Source: Atractiella rhizophila
Taxonomy: Eukaryota
DNA length: 31,395 nt
Reading direction: 5' to 3'
Assembly (NCBI GenBank): GCA_021432655.1
Contig: MU271232.1
Coordinates: forward strand, 100,361 to 131,755
Below are positions 15,915 through 29,628 of the stretch, piece after piece. Within the stretch, counting starts at the first letter, position 1, and each line of letters begins with the position of its first letter. A program made the translations under genes and the position numbers. A model generated the notes under the pieces. It was not told where the DNA came from, did no database searches, and saw only the letters and a list, made by a program, of their open reading frames with translations.

Positions 15915-18651
15915 CTACACGTATTCGATCTTGAAAGCCCAAGCATCGTCCACCTCGCTCAACTCCTCCTCGTTTCCGAAAACCTCAAACGTCCCATCCG
16001 GAGTCCACTGCCACTGGAGCGCGGTCTGGTTCTTCGTTGGACCGAGGAAGGTGACTTTGTCTCCCTTCTTCGCTGGCACAGGAAGCTTCGTCCGGATGGT
16101 ACCGTTGACGGGGTACGTCAGGGAGGTGATGTAGAACGCGTCCTCCTTCGTCGTCTACTTGCACATTCAGTGTTGTTCATGATGAATGGGAGCGTGTGAC
16201 ACTTACGAAACGTAAGTCTTCATCTTGCGAGGCGTAGAACCACCATTGTGTGTCGTATATAGCTTCTCCTCTGGTAGGAATATTCTGTCAGCTTTTTGCC
16301 GCCATCTTAGAATGGGATTGCTAACGCGAATTTGAGCCACGATCCTACTTTCAACAACGAGTTCTTAGAAGGAGGCACGATAGTTCCATTAGCCGTTGGA
16401 CCTGTACAATACTTCAATCTCTTGTCACGCAACGGAGAATACATCACATACCAACATCGATCAGGTAGTTCCCGCCTTTGGAGACGATATCGACGAGAGA
16501 ATGAAGAACGTAAGTAGCATTCCGGTAGTTTGCATCTAGGTATCAAATCAGCCGGCCCAACAAGGTAACGAAGCAGGTTTAGAGCCTGTCAGAGGCTTAC
16601 CAGGGGTGTCGCGATTGTACCCATAAGAGTATGGGTCGCTACCTTCGCTCGATTCCCACTTCCTCGTCTTCAGATGGGTGGTGGCAGAGTATTCAGGGTT
16701 CTATTCCGACACCTCAGAGAAATCATGGATGGTGAGGGGAAAGCGCCCAACGCCAAAGCAAAAGAAGTGGCACCCCAACCTGCCGTTGCCAACAACTGGC
16801 CGACCCGCCTTGCCGCCCAAGTGGAACAATTCGGGGCCGAAAAACAATAAGTTATATCGGTACTGTTACAGCAAGACTCACCGATTTCAGGATAAACAGT
16901 AGGTCCTCCAACATCGCACCTGTTAAACTGGTCACGCTGGGGAGATCATGGTCAAGGAGCTTTCTGACCAAAGAATATCGGTGTTGTATTTGTAAAACAG
17001 AGCCTCCATTTGAGGTTTCATGATATCTTCAAGAAAGTCGTCTACTTTGACGTAGCCAGTGTATGGCTCGAGCTCCGAGTTGTTATAGGCATTATGAGCG
17101 AGACCTGCAGTAAAATGAGGAACATTCACATGTAGAATTATAGCAAAGCTTACCCCCAGCAAAACCGGTTCCTGTCTCTAACGTAAGCTTTATACTGATA
17201 AAGGTAGAAATCTCACGTTGCAGAATATCGTACCCAGGAGTTCCAGGCACGCTTGACCTGCGATGATATAGATCGTCACCTGTCCCGATTGAGTGGCGTC
17301 CAACTGGGCAGAGAAGAAACAAACCTCCGCCGGCGTGTCCATATTTTGCAAAAGAAGGATTAAACCATTCCGGGAGCGAGAAGTATGTCTGTAACATAAT
17401 TAGTTTGTGAATATCAAGCACCGAACAACGAACACCGATTTTGATCTCTGGGCGATACTTCTTCGTAGCCTCGACAATTTCTCCTAGCAAATCGCGCCTG
17501 CAGGATTCTGCTTCAGATGTCGTAACAATCGGTGGAAATGTCTCACTTAGGACCATAGTTCAACGAATTGCGGTTGGAGTTGCCAGTGGTGTCGAACAGC
17601 GAGAATCCATCGTGATCTAGGGATATCTTCAGTCACAGCAGCTGTCAAGTCTTCTTGACCCACGTTTAGTGGTGAGGACCTAGACAGGTCTTAGCAAACT
17701 AGTGGCTGGTGAATGAAAATACTGACGTAGTACTTTGCGCCAATATCAGACACGAAATCAACAAAGTCCTTAGCGTTGAACTCGGAAGCAGTGAAGTGAG
17801 GAAAGAAATCGTCGTATAGAAAATCCTCGCCATAGACCTCACGATGGTGTGTCCAAACAGCGGATGATGAATTGGCAGGATTGTGTTGCCCTATAGAACA
17901 ATAATTGTCATTGCCTGTCTAAATTTTCGGCAGGGTATGCTTACAGTACCAATACCTGTTGGAACAGTCAAGCAATGCGGGACATTAGGAGAGACCACAT
18001 TACCATTCTGCATACTGGGTCCCTGAAACTGTCCAAGCAGGCACGGAGTAGATTCCTGTTCCTCAAGTTAATAAATGAGGCCATGGGTGCCGGGTATTTA
18101 CCCCAGTGCACAAACAACCCAAATTTGGCAGAATCAAACCATTCTGCGCTCTCGTGCGTCTTCAACGAGTCATCTCCAACGTAGTAGTCCGGGATTCCAG
18201 CCGTGATCTTCCAATTCTTACTGATTTGCTTCTCATTAGCGAGGATCGTGACACCATCCAGCGTTTTGCCTGCCTTCACACCATTACTGACGATTCCTAC
18301 AATGACCCGCACTTGGTCTCCTCCTCGAAGTCGCTTCAGGCTGCCTGGAATTACAGTCTTGATGTTTGGGTGCGACAAAGTGAAAGAGGTTGGATTAACG
18401 ATCCACCGGTCGGCGGAGTTGTTGGATGGTGCGAGATTTGTAATGGTCAGCTCAACAAGTTGTGCTTTCTCTTTCCCGTGCAACCTGAATCTAGAGAGTG
18501 GACAATTTTCAGTAAATGTGACCTAAGTAGCAAAAAATAAGCTGACTTGGTGGTACTTCGAGCGTTTTGCACATGAAGAACAGGCCCGTTTGAGTGATTG
18601 GAAATGTCTGACGAGATTAACGTTGCTGCAAACATGTGAATGTTCACCGTG
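15915..18651 (-). CDS. GH29 alpha-L-fucosidase, main part; runs into the gap, with its N-terminus in the mirrored segment
   Basis: HESAEWFDSAKFGLFVHWG, YYVLTTKHHDGFSLFD, YFSLPEWFNP, nucleophile motif DILWCD, KWESSEGSDPYSYGYN, GPTANGTI, EAIYDTQW; ends WAFKIEYV* (TAG 15917-15915). Confidence 0.93.
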
Positions 18652-19024
18652 NNNNNNNNNNNNNNNNNNNNNNNNNNNNNNNNNNNNNNNNNNNNNNNNN
18701 NNNNNNNNNNNNNNNNNNNNNNNNNNNNNNNNNNNNNNNNNNNNNNNNNNNNNNNNNNNNNNNNNNNNNNNNNNNNNNNNNNNNNNNNNNNNNNNNNNNN
18801 NNNNNNNNNNNNNNNNNNNNNNNNNNNNNNNNNNNNNNNNNNNNNNNNNNNNNNNNNNNNNNNNNNNNNNNNNNNNNNNNNNNNNNNNNNNNNNNNNNNN
18901 NNNNNNNNNNNNNNNNNNNNNNNNNNNNNNNNNNNNNNNNNNNNNNNNNNNNNNNNNNNNNNNNNNNNNNNNNNNNNNNNNNNNNNNNNNNNNNNNNNNN
19001 NNNNNNNNNNNNNNNNNNNNNNNN
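18652..19024. other. Assembly gap (N run)
   Basis: Run of N. Confidence 1.
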
Positions 19025-19969
19025 AGTTAGTAGACTATAGTCATTGCTTTCTAGGTTTCCTCTAAGTGCTACTTGAAGAGTTGTAAGAAGAGCCACGCAT
19101 TACGAAGAGAAACGGGTTAGGTCCTTTTGGTTGTTTATAACACATATCGCTCGTTTCTATGGTGCCGCAGAGAGGAGTGAAGACAACAAATACTTTACAC
19201 GGTGTTGGGCAGTACAACCTTTTTCGACGCTGTTCTCTAGTAGAGAAGGAAACCCTGTAGGAGTCTGCGCCATCCTCGCTTCCTTGATTGTAGTTTTTTA
19301 CACTCCCTCGAGTTTATAAACGCTTCGCACGAGTTGCTTACAGACTCCGATGTAGGCCAGTCAAAGGAAATGAAGGGGACGGTTGAACCTGAGTAAACTA
19401 TATTCGGACATGGGAAGTTACACTCCAGCACACACCTCCTTCTACACTAACGCTACTTGCTGCCCTTCGCTATGATACAGGGGCGCCCTAGTCGATAGTC
19501 GAATCCTGATACCGGTTACTACGCGGCTGTCCTAGAGACCCCAGGGCTGCGGTTCCACAAACTGGGACTTCATTCGTTCTCGAGCGTGCGGAAAAGGGAA
19601 GACGACTATTCGGACTATCGCTACCGAGCTGCTTGCTTAGGCAATGAACTGGAGCTTAGGGAAGTAGAAGGTCGCAAGCAAGGAGGTGAGAAAGAGGATG
19701 TTAGATTGACTTTGCTGTGCGCCTGTCGGAAGTCGCGACCGGGCGCTTAGACACAACCTGTTCGAATACCGATACTTCTTCGCAGCTAGACGTAGTAAGC
19801 GGAGCGAGTCTCTAAGTCGTTCGAGGTCGAACGCGGCCTACGAGTTGGAGTGGCCAGCAAGAAGTGGTTGCGTTTCCCCCTCTCCCTATAACGCTCCTCA
19901 ACGCGGGAGTAAGAAAGAAAGTTTCCTCCCAACACCCACGCTAAGTGTCTCCGTGTTCCACTATGAATC
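19025..19969. CDS. Cytochrome P450 C-terminal half, legible only as the complement read left to right
   Basis: LNHLISVTKDPKEIHDELLNILLASKDTTA (I helix), NECLRLHPPVPFNVR (ExxR), WGPDAKVFDPERW, PFSAGPRICVGQ (heme Cys codon 19751-19753), GGLWVRFTEAQGDT*; introns 19094-19148, 19358-19405, 19571-19619, 19675-19727. Confidence 0.95.
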
Positions 19970-20271
19970 GGCGAGGGGTTATTCATGCCCCGTGCCAGAT
20001 TTGGTAGGGCGGAATTAAAACTATGAAAACACTACTACTATTGCGCACCCCCTCGAACATTAGATGTACATGTTAGATCAAAACATAAAGAACCCCCTAC
20101 AGTACTAGAAGGTAGAAGCACGTGATGCCGCGGACACTGGCACAATGCACGGAACGAAAACTTTAATAGCCGACAAATAGAGTGCTGCGCAGAGCTACCT
20201 ATTTTTGTTTGGTGGGGCAGAGTCCCAGGTCGTAGAGGAGGCTCATGTTTGCGGCCATTCCGTGTCCGTCC

Positions 20272-20731
20272 TACTACGTGAAAACCCGAGAGAGGAATGA
20301 GCGGAGCTGTACCCCGAGCGGGTTGGTAATTGTGGAACTTAAGGCTGAAACGACGACTGGTTGATGAAAAGCGAGTTACCGCAACTCAGAGTCGTTATGC
20401 AGCTCGTCCAAGGAAACTTGGAAAGCAGGATAAAGTTGTTATTCCGCCGCCGCGAGAGACCCGTCCTTCTTTCGCGACTAAAGCTACCATCACCACCCTC
20501 GATGGGACGCCTTATAGATGGTTTCCTTCCTCTTACCACCCTAGTTCGCTAGTTCCACGGTTGGGAAAGGTACTTAAACGTAGCTTTGTGCCGACTACTA
20601 CAGCCAAAGTTTCATGTTGAACGGAAGAAAGGCAAGGAGCTTGATACTGTTGCAGTTAACAAGCCGAGTAGTCCTTCAGCACGGACAGGGAGGTCCGTCT
20701 ATGTGTAGGAAAGTGACCCAGCCGCGTTGTC
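20272..20731. CDS. Alpha-L-fucosidase N-terminal exons, legible only as the complement read left to right
   Basis: VPLNLSSYFNNKAAALSGQEESADFDGSGGSYPAEYLPKEGEWWDQAIK, intron 20556-20613, then YNLPSFRSSNYDNVNCSAHQEVVPVPPGRYTSFHWVGAT; resembles the N-terminal module of fungal GH29 enzymes. Start uncertain (20272 or 20310). Confidence 0.8.
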
Positions 20732-22165
20732 GGAAAACCTTCTCGTTGTTTGCGTGGGCCTTCTCATCAGAAAGCGCTTTCTGGATGATAGCATTGATGA
20801 GAGGCGATATTTCCTAGTCCATTATTAATTTATTTGAATCATAGCAATAAGAGACCTATTTATACAAACCTTCATGGCTTCTTTGACCGGATTTTTCCAC
20901 GAAAGGCCTAAAGTAGCAACAGGATCGCTCGACAATCTCCTGGCCGTCTCATACTCAGCACGATTGAAAGCCTGAAAGAATCCCCCAGCTTTGATCATTT
21001 GTTCGTCCTTATGTTCCTCATCCTTCGAAGGCGGGAACAGTTCTGCTAAGGACTCCTGAACCACCAATATCCGTCACGCTCTATAATGCTACCCATGAGG
21101 AAAGATTCTTACCACGGACCAGCCAAACAGGAATTCCGTCGCCGAGTCCAGGGTGAAGCGACTGGCGAGATCCTGGAAATCGAACGCAGTGGTACGATGG
21201 AGCTGTGGTTGAGGAGGGATGGATGAAGAGGTCGAGAGAGGCGAGAGAGAGAGGCGGCTGATTGTCGAGAGGATCCCTTGTGACTGCAGCGAAGACGTCA
21301 ATCTGTCCAGCGGCTCAGGTAGGAGAGAAACAAGCTCACGTGCTTGTCAAACACATCACAGTTTGAGATTTCTTCCTTGGAGAAGAAGGGTCGGGTCAAA
21401 GTCCTGTGAATGTGGATGAGTTGAAGGATATGCTGTCAGGTAGTGAACTATGTACCTGTGGTGTTTCCACTGAGCCCCTGTAGCATCATCACTCTCAATC
21501 CTCACGTAGATATAAAGAGGGAGCTCACCGTCCGAGTTAAAAATTCCCACGCCTTGTGGAAGATATCACTGCCAAACACATTGTGAAGAAAACCAGGCTG
21601 CACACCTAGAAAATCACGAGCTGCTGCCGTGAAGACATCTCCTTTGGGGAAATTGGTCCAGTTCTTTCCGGTGAGAATGTGCTTAAAAACCTGGGGGATC
21701 AGGCATGACACAATGAAATGAGTGAGTCAACTCTGTGGAGTTTGAATCGCAACGGATGCCTACCTCAGGATCTTCAGTCATGCCAACGAAGACGCCAAAA
21801 ACATTCAAGTTGATAGTCCTGCTGCCCATCCTTTCCTTGATGGCTGAACTGAACTGACCTGGGATAGGATCGGAGAGAAAACGTCTTGGACCAACGAGAG
21901 GGAAGTCCATGTTGAACGGTAACCAACCTTGAGCTTTTGGAATCAGGGAGGCATCATAAAGACGCGCTGCGCGCCGAGAGAAATAATATTGATTCCAGAG
22001 GAGGTGGATCTTGAGATTGATAGCTCCCAAAAGGAGAGAAGTCAGGAGTATGAGCGCACCACCGTTGACACCGCTTAGCGAAGCAGGAAGAGTGGGGAGC
22101 AAAAACTTTTGCTCCAAACAGATGAGAATCAGATGGACCAAAATGATCCGTTGGAGGCGAGACAT
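20732..22165 (-). CDS. Cytochrome P450, CYP63/CYP52-like, N-terminal half
   Basis: Hydrophobic N-terminal anchor, TEDPE|VFKHIL, FLG|GIFNSDG|AQWKHHRTLTRPFF, FDFQDLASRFTLDSATEFLFG, EISPLINAIIQKAL...KVF; continues in the mirrored segment from 19025. Confidence 0.93.
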
Positions 22166-22637
22166 GATTGCAATCAATCTCTAGTGTTGATGTCGAATAT
22201 TTGGCACCTTGAGAAAGTCTTTCAAGCAAAGAGTAACGAGAAAGTAGGACCGTTCATCCCCACCAGCTTTTATGCTGCTTCAAGAGCGGAACATCATATT
22301 CTGAGTCGCAAATCATTAACTATTGATAGTTAACTATTCGTCCAAAAGTCGCCGTTGTGAAAATGTGATTGTCAGCGGCAGCTCGCTTCGCAAGCTCGCG
22401 GTGCAATACTCTCCGCTGGAAGCAAATATACAGTTACTGCCACGTGACACGCGCCATGTTTGGCGGACGGAAAAGCTACAGTGTGCTGCGCTGTTTCAAC
22501 TTCCAATATCCAATTGCGGGAAACGACTTGAGAGGGCTTGAGGAGTCAAATATCCTGTCGATTCATTGGTGGGCATAATAAAAGTCATAGACATGAAACT
22601 TCTCCCCTCCAGACGAACCACCACAACAAAAGGAAGC

Positions 22638-25216
22638 ATGGCAGACCCTCTCCACTCTATCAACGGCGTTGCGCCAGCAACCCTGCTTGATGACCAGGAA
22701 ACATTCGAGGTGAAGGGAAGCAAGAATTCGAAACACACCATCAAAAGGACGGGTGACCATTACATTTGTTCCTGTAAGCATTGCCAACAGTATTTCAGAC
22801 GTAAATACTGGCTGACAGCATTCGCAAACAAGGTCCGGCATGGAAGATGCAGAAAGGTACCTCCATTCACATTCAAACAACTTGGGATCTGAATAAATAT
22901 TTATTTTCAGGTAAACTGCCGAACGAAAGGACTTGTAAACATCTCAAGCAGGTCCTCTCTGAAGCCTACGAAGAAGAACGTCTCAAGCAATACGCCGATA
23001 CGCATGCTCAGCGTCCGCCGGAGAAGAACGTTACCTCCAAACCTGCCTCTAAAGCGAAACCTGCCTCAAATCTGGTACAACGAAGCCAGTCTCAAAGACC
23101 ACTCGCACCACGCGCGGGAAAGTAAAGACTGAAGAGGACGAGGGAGAGGCTGAAGAAGAAGAGGAAGCTCCGAAGAAACCTACCTCGAGAACCACGAGAG
23201 CGACTCGCGGGAAAGCAAAAGTAGAAGAGGAAGAAGAAGAAGGCAGAATGGCCGCCGAAGCGGTCAAGGTCTAAGCCCCCATCGAAGTCAGAAAGCAAAC
23301 CTCCTTCAAAGTCGTCTAAACCTGCTTCAAAGACCGCGGCCACTCGAGTCCCGCGTGGGAAAACGCCAAAAGTCGAAGAAGAAGAGGAGCAGGCGGAAGA
23401 AGCGGCTGATGAGGCGATGGAAGTCGAAGAGGAGGATGGGGAAGATGATCCTGTGTGGAACATCAACGGCGTAAAGCCTTTGAAGAAGCTTAAGGATCAG
23501 GAATTTGTTGAAGTTGAAGGCTCTGGCTCGTCCAAATATAAAGTAAAGAGGATCAACGATCATTACAGCTGCACCTGCCCTGCATGGGCATTTTTGAAGG
23601 GTATCAATGTGGACTGTCGCTCATGCAAGCATTGTAAAGCCGTCTTAGGCGAAGAGTGGGTCGTGTTTCTGCTCCGTTTTACCTGACGGATGGCGCTGAA
23701 CATTTTTGTGGTGGGTTAAAGATACGAGAAAGTGCGATTGGAAGCGAAGGGAGTCGAGGTACCGACCTCGCCTGTGAAAGGGAAAGGGAAGAGGAAAGCT
23801 GCTGATTCGGATTCGCCATCGAAAAAGAAGAAAAAAACAAACGATGACGGGGACGACGACGATGACAGCGTTACTGTGCAGGTCTTGTTGGCCAATAAAT
23901 TTGATTTAGAGGGAAAACAAGACCCCACTGGTTGGTGGATTTCTGAAAAGCGTGAGTACTTTAGCTTCCCTTCCTTAGAATTGATTTCAAATCTTACGTT
24001 CAAACAGTCGACGGCCTGCGTTGCTTCTGGGATGGTAAATCTAAGTTACTCATAGACTGGGAAATAAGTTTGCTGCTCCCGACTGGTTTAAAGAGCGTAC
24101 GTTTTCTCAAATCTTACCGAGGAGTATGCAATCGACGGTGAACACGTATAGAACTCCCTCAAGGTACGACTCTGGATGGAGAGCTGTGGCACTCACGTGG
24201 AGGCTTCAATGAAGCTACTTCCATTGTCAGGTCGGGAGCTTCCAAGCGCTGGAACGAAATCAGATTCCATGGTCGGTGTTTGCATTGATGAGTCCTCTCG
24301 AGCTGCAAGCTGACTCTGTCTAATAGTGTTCGATGTACCATCTGAAGGAAGCTTATCATTCGAAGAACGAGTCGCATTTCTGGAGAAAACATTTCACAAC
24401 TCTCCCTCAGTCGCGGCACCTGTCCCCGTGGACGAAGACGAGGAAGAGTCTCAGACCACGCATGAGATCATCGGAAAAGGAACCGGGCTGGTCGACATTC
24501 ACGATGAGAGTGAACAAGGGAATAAAACTAAGAAAGCAGGGGTGGTGGTGGATCTAGTTCAACACACAAAGTGCGAGGGGAAAGATCACCTTCTCAGGGC
24601 TTTGAAGAGGGTTGAACAGCTTGGAGGTGAAGGGTTCGTCTCCTTCTCTTATGGTGGCTGGAGCGCTGAATTGACGCTGCATTAGGCTGATGCTGAGGAA
24701 ACCTGGATCTAAATATGAAGGACGGCGATCGTCCACACTTTTGAAAGTCAAGACCTTCTATGAAGCTGATGCCGAAGTTATTGGTCACGTCAACGGAAAG
24801 GTGTGCATTTTTTACAAAGGTTTTTCTAATTAACATTGCTGTATAGGGAAAGTATGCAGGAATGACAGGCTCCTTGAAATGTAAGATGGAATCCGGACAG
24901 GAATTCCAGGTTGGCTCTGGAATGAACGATGATCTGCGAAAGAAACCTCCCAAGGTCCGCATAACCTGTTCTCTCGTTTTCAGAAAAGGCTTACCGAGAA
25001 ATGCATAGATTGGAACCATTATCAATTACAGATTCCAGGAGATCACAAAGGTGTGTCGTGCTTCTTCACCCTTATATCACAGCAATGACAGCATAATAGG
25101 ATGGCGTTCCGAGATTCCCCACGTTCCTTGGGATTAGAATTGATATGAAGAAACCCAAAGACTACGTCTTTCCTGCGAAAAAGTCTTCCAACCAGAAGAA
25201 CGACGACTCGGATTGA
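22638..25216 (+). CDS. Minimal bacterial/viral-type ATP-dependent DNA ligase with two N-terminal SWIM zinc fingers; three apparent frameshifts
   Basis: SWIM1 YICSCPAWKMQKGKLPNERTCKH and SWIM2 YSCTCPAWAFLKGINVDCRSCKH; motif I WISEKLDGLR, III LDGELW, IIIa FHVFD, IV GGEGLMLR, V RSSTLLKVK, OB fold ending GVPRFPTFLGIR; stop TGA 25214-25216. Confidence 0.92.
23036..23400 (+). repeat. Coding repeat in the ligase linker: three KPxSK/R..TR..RGKxKxEEEE units
   Basis: KPVSKTTRTTRGKVKTEEDE, KPTSRTTRATRGKAKVEEEE, KPASKTAATRVPRGKTPKVEEEEE. Confidence 0.75.
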
Positions 25217-28116: not shown

Positions 28117-28673
28117 NNNNNNNNNNNNNNNNNNNNNNNNNNNNNNNNNNNNNNNNNNNNNNNNNNNNNNNNNNNNNNNNNNNNNNNNNNNNNNNNNNNN
28201 NNNNNNNNNNNNNNNNNNNNNNNNNNNNNNNNNNNNNNNNNNNNNNNNNNNNNNNNNNNNNNNNNNNNNNNNNNNNNNNNNNNNNNNNNNNNNNNNNNNN
28301 NNNNNNNNNNNNNNNNNNNNNNNNNNNNNNNNNNNNNNNNNNNNNNNNNNNNNNNNNNNNNNNNNNNNNNNNNNNNNNNNNNNNNNNNNNNNNNNNNNNN
28401 NNNNNNNNNNNNNNNNNNNNNNNNNNNNNNNNNNNNNNNNNNNNNNNNNNNNNNNNNNNNNNNNNNNNNNNNNNNNNNNNNNNNNNNNNNNNNNNNNNNN
28501 NNNNNNNNNNNNNNNNNNNNNNNNNNNNNNNNNNNNNNNNNNNNNNNNNNNNNNNNNNNNNNNNNNNNNNNNNNNNNNNNNNNNNNNNNNNNNNNNNNNN
28601 NNNNNNNNNNNNNNNNNNNNNNNNNNNNNNNNNNNNNNNNNNNNNNNNNNNNNNNNNNNNNNNNNNNNNNNNN
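28117..28673. other. Assembly gap (N run)
   Basis: Run of N. Confidence 1.
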
Positions 28674-29628
28674 TGTGGGTGCCGAAAGTCCTTTTATGCT
28701 TAGGATGGCTTCAAGCTTCAAGGGGAGTCTGGCCGGCTTCTCGAAGGGTCGGGTAGCTTCGCCGCACTTCGCTTGGCCGAAGGGAAGGCGAACTCGGGTG
28801 CCTGCAATCAGCTTTTTATCTGAAGTGCCCCTACACGTCCCTCGCTGCTGCGTCGATTACGCGTCTTGCAAGTCGCGAAGACACTCCCAAAGACTCGAAT
28901 CGAGACCAACCCGTGGGCTTCGTGTAGCATCTCCGTCCGGGGTTTTGCTTTAGTCACGGAACTACGCATTTGGAGCACCAAGGCTGAGCTTAGTCTAGGT
29001 TGGCACGTTTCGCTTAAGCGGTGAGGGTGCTGTGTTGCTCAAGATTTTATAAGCCTCTGGTTGCTGCTACGTGGTCAGAAACGATTTAGAAATTTGGCAT
29101 TTGGATTGGTGAACTCGCGGGTTGAAGAATTTGGGGAAACAAGTAAGCGTTTCGTTTCCTAACTCGACACGTTGCAGTTCCATCTCCATCCCACTTTCGT
29201 TGTTGTTCCTCAGCGCATCAATTGAGGATGTATTATGCTTAAGAGAGGGATAAAGGGATCGATTTCTCTTGAGGGAGACTTATAGGACCTTGTTATGAGA
29301 GCTGTTCAGAAAAAAGTCATCGAACGGAGCAAAATGGATCCCCTTCAGTGGAGTGGGAGAGTGGTCTATAAGCTCACCCTCTGAGAATGCTTCAAACGTC
29401 AACTTGTGGATTAGAGATTGGTGTTTTCCAAATTTCTGTGATGTTATGCCAGCTTGAACAATTTCCGAAGAATACTTGCAGGTGTTGTGAGATCCTCGTT
29501 TCTTCTCGTTCACAGTCTGATGTCGATGAGCCACCATCAACTTCAGTCATTCCACTTTCATTTGATTTCTAACTCTAGAACACCACTAATCCTGTGTTTT
29601 TCTGCAGCCGTTCACATCAATAGTTATT

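Follow-up and report, generated by a model that had tools for sequence, protein, structure and literature searches.

A 1.7-kb block beside an assembly gap, very probably written in reversed letter order, hides parts of a cytochrome P450 gene and a GH29 alpha-L-fucosidase gene

Introduction

The question raised by this locus is why two minus-strand genes, a cytochrome P450 and a GH29 alpha-L-fucosidase, break off on either side of a 1.7-kb block that seems to belong to neither of them. The locus was analysed in a window of 31,395 nt, which has the character of ordinary fungal nuclear DNA with short introns. Open frames elsewhere in the window matched FAN1, Gtr1/RagA, an OPT transporter, a protein kinase and a Per1-like protein. 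An Rfam search of the window gave no matches. On the plus strand at 22542-23686, two neighbouring open frames carry a similar module, in which a Cys-x-Cys ... Cys-x-His arrangement follows a lysine-rich acidic low-complexity stretch. Neither frame had a Pfam match at E <= 0.001, and the module is a putative tandem zinc-finger-like domain.

A chromosomal inversion yields the reverse complement of the inverted segment. No biological process is known to turn the polarity of a segment around and leave it uncomplemented. The two operations leave different traces in protein matches, in sequencing contigs and in oligonucleotide composition, and the block was compared in all three respects.

Results

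Position and boundaries of the block

The block and the two runs of N in the window are as follows.

18652-19024: sized gap of 373 N; its expected content is about 92 fucosidase residues plus intron(s)
19025-20731: mirrored block of 1707 nt; its true order runs from 20731 to 19025, as the plain reverse, uncomplemented
28117-28673: second N run, 557 N

The block starts at 19025, immediately behind the first N run. The right boundary, 20731/20732, is neither a gap nor a contig edge in the deposit. Short-read contigs run 345 nt past 20732, so the end of the block is no natural break in them. The initial annotation had placed the block at 19025-20731 with an adjoining N run, and these coordinates proved exact. 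It had also proposed an in-silico reversal that hides the C-terminal half of the P450, a spacer and the N-terminus of the fucosidase, and all of these parts were found.

Its description of the block as having no credible open reading frame was too loose, since the deposited block holds stop-free stretches of up to 115 codons; the rest of that observation stood. The length of open stretches was dropped as a discriminator in view of these stretches and of the count in the complement-only reading of the whole window, where 27 stretches reached at least 110 codons and only 3 of them lay inside the block.

The P450 gene continues in the reversed block

The part of the P450 gene to the right of the block is correctly written in the deposit.

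20732-22165, minus strand: 5' part of the P450 gene, supported by the joints of the transcript contig from run X3, by the public protein P0025 and by homologues with PF00067
22165-21762, 21688-21605, 21551-21528, 21476-21455, 21402-21340, 21283-21112, 21054-20869 and 20812-20732, minus strand: exons of this part

The transcript contig from X3 defined eight exons between 22247 and 20732 by way of seven CT..AC skips. Homologues of this part were reached through P0025. The frame of exon 1 found nothing in the first homologue search, and Pfam gave no matches on five of the 5' exon pieces. A phmmer search with exon 1 against 1.84 billion representatives returned a single match, P0025. When P0025 was used as the query, 579 longer proteins were found at E <= 0.001, and PF00067 was present in all 120 of these that were listed.

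Four versions of the window were compared by tblastn, namely as deposited, with the block reversed, with the block reverse-complemented and with the block complemented. Six full-length P450 homologues served as queries. All six gave HSPs in the block in the reversed version, and likewise in its complement-only mirror, whereas none did so in the deposited version (0/6) or in the reverse-complemented one (0/6). In the reversed version, five of the six had an HSP that spanned 20731/20732. For P0026, residues 44-471 formed one HSP with E 1.8e-84 after reversal, and in the deposited version only residues 44-198 were aligned, with E 5.9e-16. Judged from these alignments and from those of the GH29 queries described below, the pattern of homologue matches is far beyond chance.

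The remaining part of the P450 was modelled in the block.

19025-19969: 3' part of the P450 gene, legible only as the plain complement read left to right; model guided by P0026 and P0034
19025-19093, 19149-19357, 19406-19570, 19620-19674 and 19728-19969: exons of this part, the last with the stop codon
19094-19148, 19358-19405, 19571-19619 and 19675-19727: GT..AG introns of 55, 48, 49 and 53 nt

An earlier three-intron model of the block, obtained with a narrow beam search, contained no heme loop and was replaced by the present four-intron model from a wider beam.

The initial annotation had stated that the minus-strand P450 goes on in the plain complement from 20732 with no base lost. This was the case, and the peptide quoted there was recovered. 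The joined coding sequence measured 1036 + 740 = 1776 nt, which is divisible by three and corresponds to 591 aa; it opens with Met, ends at a stop and has no internal stop. In the deposited reading, a stop interrupts the P450 frame 18 codons beyond 20732. The 591-aa model aligned end to end with all nine relatives that were tried; in the case of P0034, residues 20-588 were aligned with 20-578 at E 3e-137. P0026 was 56% identical to the model across its whole 471 aa. In addition, FxxGxRxCxG, which we take to be the pattern of the cysteine heme-ligand loop, had a single occurrence in the tail model of 272 residues, at residue 194, within the mirrored block. The closest named relative of the P450 was a paralogue labelled Atractiella rhizophila, with 56% identity.

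The minus strand in its true order is predicted to encode a complete 591-aa cytochrome P450 of CYP52/CYP63-like type, where the family is assigned through end-to-end similarity to relatives that carry PF00067.

A truncated public model of the P450

P0025, a protein of 178 aa in a public protein library, corresponded letter for letter to six exon pieces of the window and ended inside an intron. On this identity, P0025 is a truncated public model of this very P450 gene. A gene caller working on a record that bears the defect would yield a model like P0025. P0025, which is tied only indirectly to the deposited record, thus suggests that a public record already bore the defect at the time of its annotation. 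The initial annotation had predicted truncated annotation of both genes, and for the P450 the six exact exon pieces of P0025 and its end in an intron bore this out.

The block holds the start of a GH29 fucosidase

The other gene interrupted at the block is a GH29 alpha-L-fucosidase, whose larger part lies on the other side of the gap. The features of this gene and of the spacer are as follows.

19970-20271: spacer of about 300 nt in the block, following the stop of the P450; its right bound is set by the probable start of the fucosidase
20272-20731: beginning of the GH29 fucosidase gene, in the complement-only reading; it runs into the gap in true order
about 20400-20552 and 20593-20731: fucosidase exon stretches in the block supported by homologues (tblastn with P0003, P0005, P0006, P0010, P0011 and P0016)
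15918-18651, minus strand: remainder of the GH29 alpha-L-fucosidase gene, in correct letter order as far as the edge of the gap (PF01120, P0001)

The correctly written part was identified by PF01120 on two exon pieces, 17971-18522 (E 3.8e-07, 30.3 bits) and 17694-17918 (E 1.6e-11, 44.7 bits). Both passed the cut-off of 25.2 bits. Residues 31-611 of P0001 aligned from 18650 down to 15918. The best named relative of the fucosidase was 96% identical and was labelled Atractiella rhizophila.

Eight GH29 proteins were used as queries against the versions of the window. All six long-form proteins matched the block with residues of about 17-114, solely in the reversed or complement versions, and none of the eight matched the reverse-complemented block. 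The other two were short-form proteins with a later Met start, so they had no part to align in the block. In the long form, about 160 additional N-terminal residues precede the Met that both forms share. In the reversed version, its residues of about 17-114 lay at 19350 down to 19026, on the same strand as residues 194 onwards at 18647 and below and collinear with them. The spacer contained no HSPs of the P450 or GH29 queries.

Between 19026 of the reversed version and 18647, residues 102-193 of P0003 were left unaligned, which amounts to about 92 residues and fits the gap. The 373-N gap has the size expected for about 92 unplaced fucosidase residues with one or two short introns, and the geometry of the scaffold is therefore right. 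The length and placement of the block are correct, and the wrong part is the letter order only. In its true order, the block is predicted from these alignments to start a secreted long-form GH29 alpha-L-fucosidase, which would pass through the gap and resume at 18651. The fucosidase ATG is probably located at 20272, with a start that resembles a signal peptide.

The first 30 residues of P0001 had no counterpart in the window and should fall in the 373-N gap. Their placement there implies that another public contig, of 76,432 nt, covers the gap region.

Contigs from sequencing runs contradict the deposited letters

Sequencing runs were searched with a query that consisted of the block and an equal length of its right flank, and eight runs were listed. 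The best runs contained 0.45, 0.44 and 0.25 of the sampled words. As the block made up half of the query, the two best shares are consistent with the present reading, and they were not counted as evidence. One contig was taken from each of three runs, of which X1 and X2 are DNA runs of one sample and X3 gave a spliced transcript contig.

From 20732 to the right, the contigs of X1, X2 and X3 agreed with the window apart from a few differences. Their left ends were loose and did not fit the deposit over 345 (X1), 345 (X2) and 818 (X3) letters. The 30 letters before 20732 were the same in all three and agreed at 30 of 30 positions with the plain reverse of 19025-19054. The same letters differed from the reverse complement of 19025-19054 and from the deposited letters. 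In the transcript contig, the 740 spliced letters of the P450 tail can be accommodated within the 818 loose letters, which leaves 78 for the 3' UTR.

The interpretation in the initial annotation was supported in that contigs from three runs contradicted the letters left of 20732 and agreed with the plain reverse over 30 letters. These contigs are positive support from data independent of the assembly step, over 30 letters. The comparison at this level covers 30 of the 1707 block positions, and protein homology and composition cover the remainder. The runs may include the assembly's own sample, and the comparison is therefore a test of the assembly step, not of the biology of another isolate.

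All four runs aligned to the window had a depth of 0 across 19025-20620, which was not counted because absence cannot be demonstrated from contigs. The soil metatranscriptome run X8 gave one 192-nt contig in exon 1 of the P450, from which no conclusion was drawn. In scans of metagenome contigs, exact 28-mers from the right of 29070 and from the right of 20732 gave no matches each.

A separate observation was made at 22375-22438, where two 110-nt contigs, each at about half depth, overlay the same place in both DNA runs. The depths of the pairs were 115.9/90.7 and 139.4/124.2, and one contig differed at 22405. This looks like a heterozygous bubble, with two alleles in the sequenced material. 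Two alleles may account for P0001 being about 96%, not 100%, identical to the fucosidase of the window.

Composition locates the block from the window alone

Oligonucleotide frequencies are symmetric under reverse complementing and are not symmetric under plain reversal. Markov models were trained on the two strands of the window outside the block, and tiles of 400 nt were scored by the log-likelihood of the forward against the reversed reading. At k=4, all six tiles inside the block favoured the reversed reading, with values from -8.1 to -13.2. The 138 tiles outside the block had a mean of +8.6 (sd 4.1, minimum -2.4), and about 98% of them were positive. The same was seen from k=2 to 5, where the inside tiles were negative in 6/6 cases and the mean of the 138 outside tiles was between +7 and +9.

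The boundaries were also recovered. The cumulative score changed direction at 18644 and 20740, and the cross-validated maximal mirror-like segment at k=4 was 18645-20740, with a score of 132. The cross-validated scores of the block were 82, 132 and 188 at k = 3, 4 and 5, compared with 11, 17 and 26 for the next best segments. This meant that the block is locatable to about 10 nt from the 31-kb window alone, without any database.

The strongest background mirror-like excursion outside the block was found at 17034-17206, with a score of 17 at k=4. It lies in the part of the fucosidase that homologues showed to be correct, and it marks the noise level that the test has in a window of this size.

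A candidate stretch at the second gap

The composition test also drew attention to the right side of the second N run.

28674-29070: weak candidate for a second mirrored stretch, 397 nt, directly right of the second gap, non-coding, from tile likelihood

With a tile log-likelihood of -5 to -7, this stretch scored lower than any of the 181 null tiles, and the signal came mainly from its last 120 nt. The cross-validated excursion score was 10-26, no higher than the excursions inside the correctly written fucosidase gene. The stretch had no protein support in either reading. Its neighbours are a minus-strand gene on the far side of the gap and, to the right, a Per1-like gene that starts near 29620. 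The stretch may be another mirrored piece, shorter than the first and likewise directly right of a gap, but we consider this reading doubtful.

Discussion

Origin of the reversed block

The results above led us to the view that 19025-20731 is almost certainly the real sequence of the locus, written 3' to 5' on the same strand and uncomplemented. We regard it as a software artefact and not as biology, and the extension of a contig end into the gap is its probable origin. An older contig would have begun at 20732 and would have been extended leftwards by 1707 nt into the gap. The extension may have been built on the opposite strand and returned with only one of the two operations required, the reversal or the complementing. 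A string-handling error when the extension was written back into the contig right of the gap would be the most likely origin. We infer that the responsible software step was scaffolding or gap extension.

Other explanations were weighed against this one. A real chromosomal inversion or rearrangement in the isolate could have separated the halves of the genes; it would explain the interruption of both genes and has nothing beyond this in its favour. The reverse-complemented block, however, matched 0/6 P450 and 0/8 GH29 queries, the loose ends of the contigs were not the reverse complement of the deposited letters, and the X3 transcript contig continued through the junction. As the reverse-complement control restored nothing, an inversion is excluded for practical purposes, and we give it a probability close to nil. 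It could also be argued that the deposited letters are right and that the match of the complement to P450 and GH29 proteins is a coincidence or a low-complexity similarity. The complement-only reading of ordinary coding DNA does give long open stretches, as the count above showed. However, the block matched six different P450s at E values from 1e-84 to 1e-34, collinear and in frame over the junction, the resulting 591-aa model was uninterrupted, and the contigs of three runs contradicted the deposit. A coincidence of this kind is vanishingly improbable.

The remaining alternative accepts the in-silico reversal and gives it a later origin, in a finishing script, in the conversion of a submission file or in the preparation of the window, instead of in the assembler or gap closer. 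The sequence identifies no software step, and a block bounded exactly by an N run on one side could be produced by any contig-wise or coordinate-based script. On the other hand, a truncated model such as P0025 on exactly these exons suggests that the defect predates the annotation of a public record. The boundary at 20731/20732 fits an extension joined to the end of an older contig better than an operation on a whole contig. We consider a later origin unlikely, and a contig-end extension that was written back in the wrong letter order is the explanation that we prefer.

The error might be systematic. In that case the extension step would have reversed many gap-adjacent contig ends in this assembly, and perhaps in other assemblies of the same pipeline, with 28674-29070 as a second instance. 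We put this forward as a speculative extension that we would not expect to hold. If it did hold, reversing the string would recover a class of gap-truncated genes and of "gene-free" flanks of gaps from public fungal drafts, and further cases would be findable genome-wide by the test of forward against reversed k-mer likelihood.

Consequences for the record

The block reveals no new biology. It is an error in the record of a kind that escapes ordinary quality control. A block that is plainly reversed keeps its length, base composition and position, and it passes as unremarkable non-coding DNA. The public library represents the 591-aa P450 by the 178-aa fragment P0025, and the secreted long-form fucosidase is deprived of its start in the record. 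Counts of P450s or CAZymes for this fungus would be off in any comparison. The repair consists of reversing 1707 letters, by which two gene models are restored. The composition test is cheap and could be used to scan whole assemblies for other cases.

Comparison with known systems

A full-text search gave no description of reversed, uncomplemented blocks in assemblies among the literature matches listed, and we could name no tool bug of this kind. The nearest counterparts are misoriented contigs and inversion misassemblies at scaffold gaps. Like the block, they are single orientation errors bounded by a gap, they break genes at their edges, and they are errors of assembly. However, a misoriented contig is still valid DNA, which aligners, gene callers and read mapping find on the other strand. 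In the block neither strand is valid. It matches nothing, appears gene-free and is recognisable only by reversing the string.

The same string operation is in deliberate use elsewhere. According to the RRE preprint, reversed, non-complemented copies of genomes serve as decoys that calibrate false-discovery rates in repeat and HMM searches (10.64898/2026.04.14.718546). Plain reversal keeps base composition and destroys all biological signal, which explains why the block has no matches as deposited. The decoys differ from the block in that they are made on purpose and are not deposited, whereas the present case is one block within a genome record.

The locus also resembles the gap-truncated genes that are found in draft fungal genomes. 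Two genes end early near an N run, and P0025 is a model of this type. The difference is that most of the sequence that seems to be missing is in the record. Only about 92 fucosidase residues are really inside the gap, and reversal recovers about 945 nt for the P450 gene (19025-19969) and, for the fucosidase gene, about 460 nt (20272-20731).
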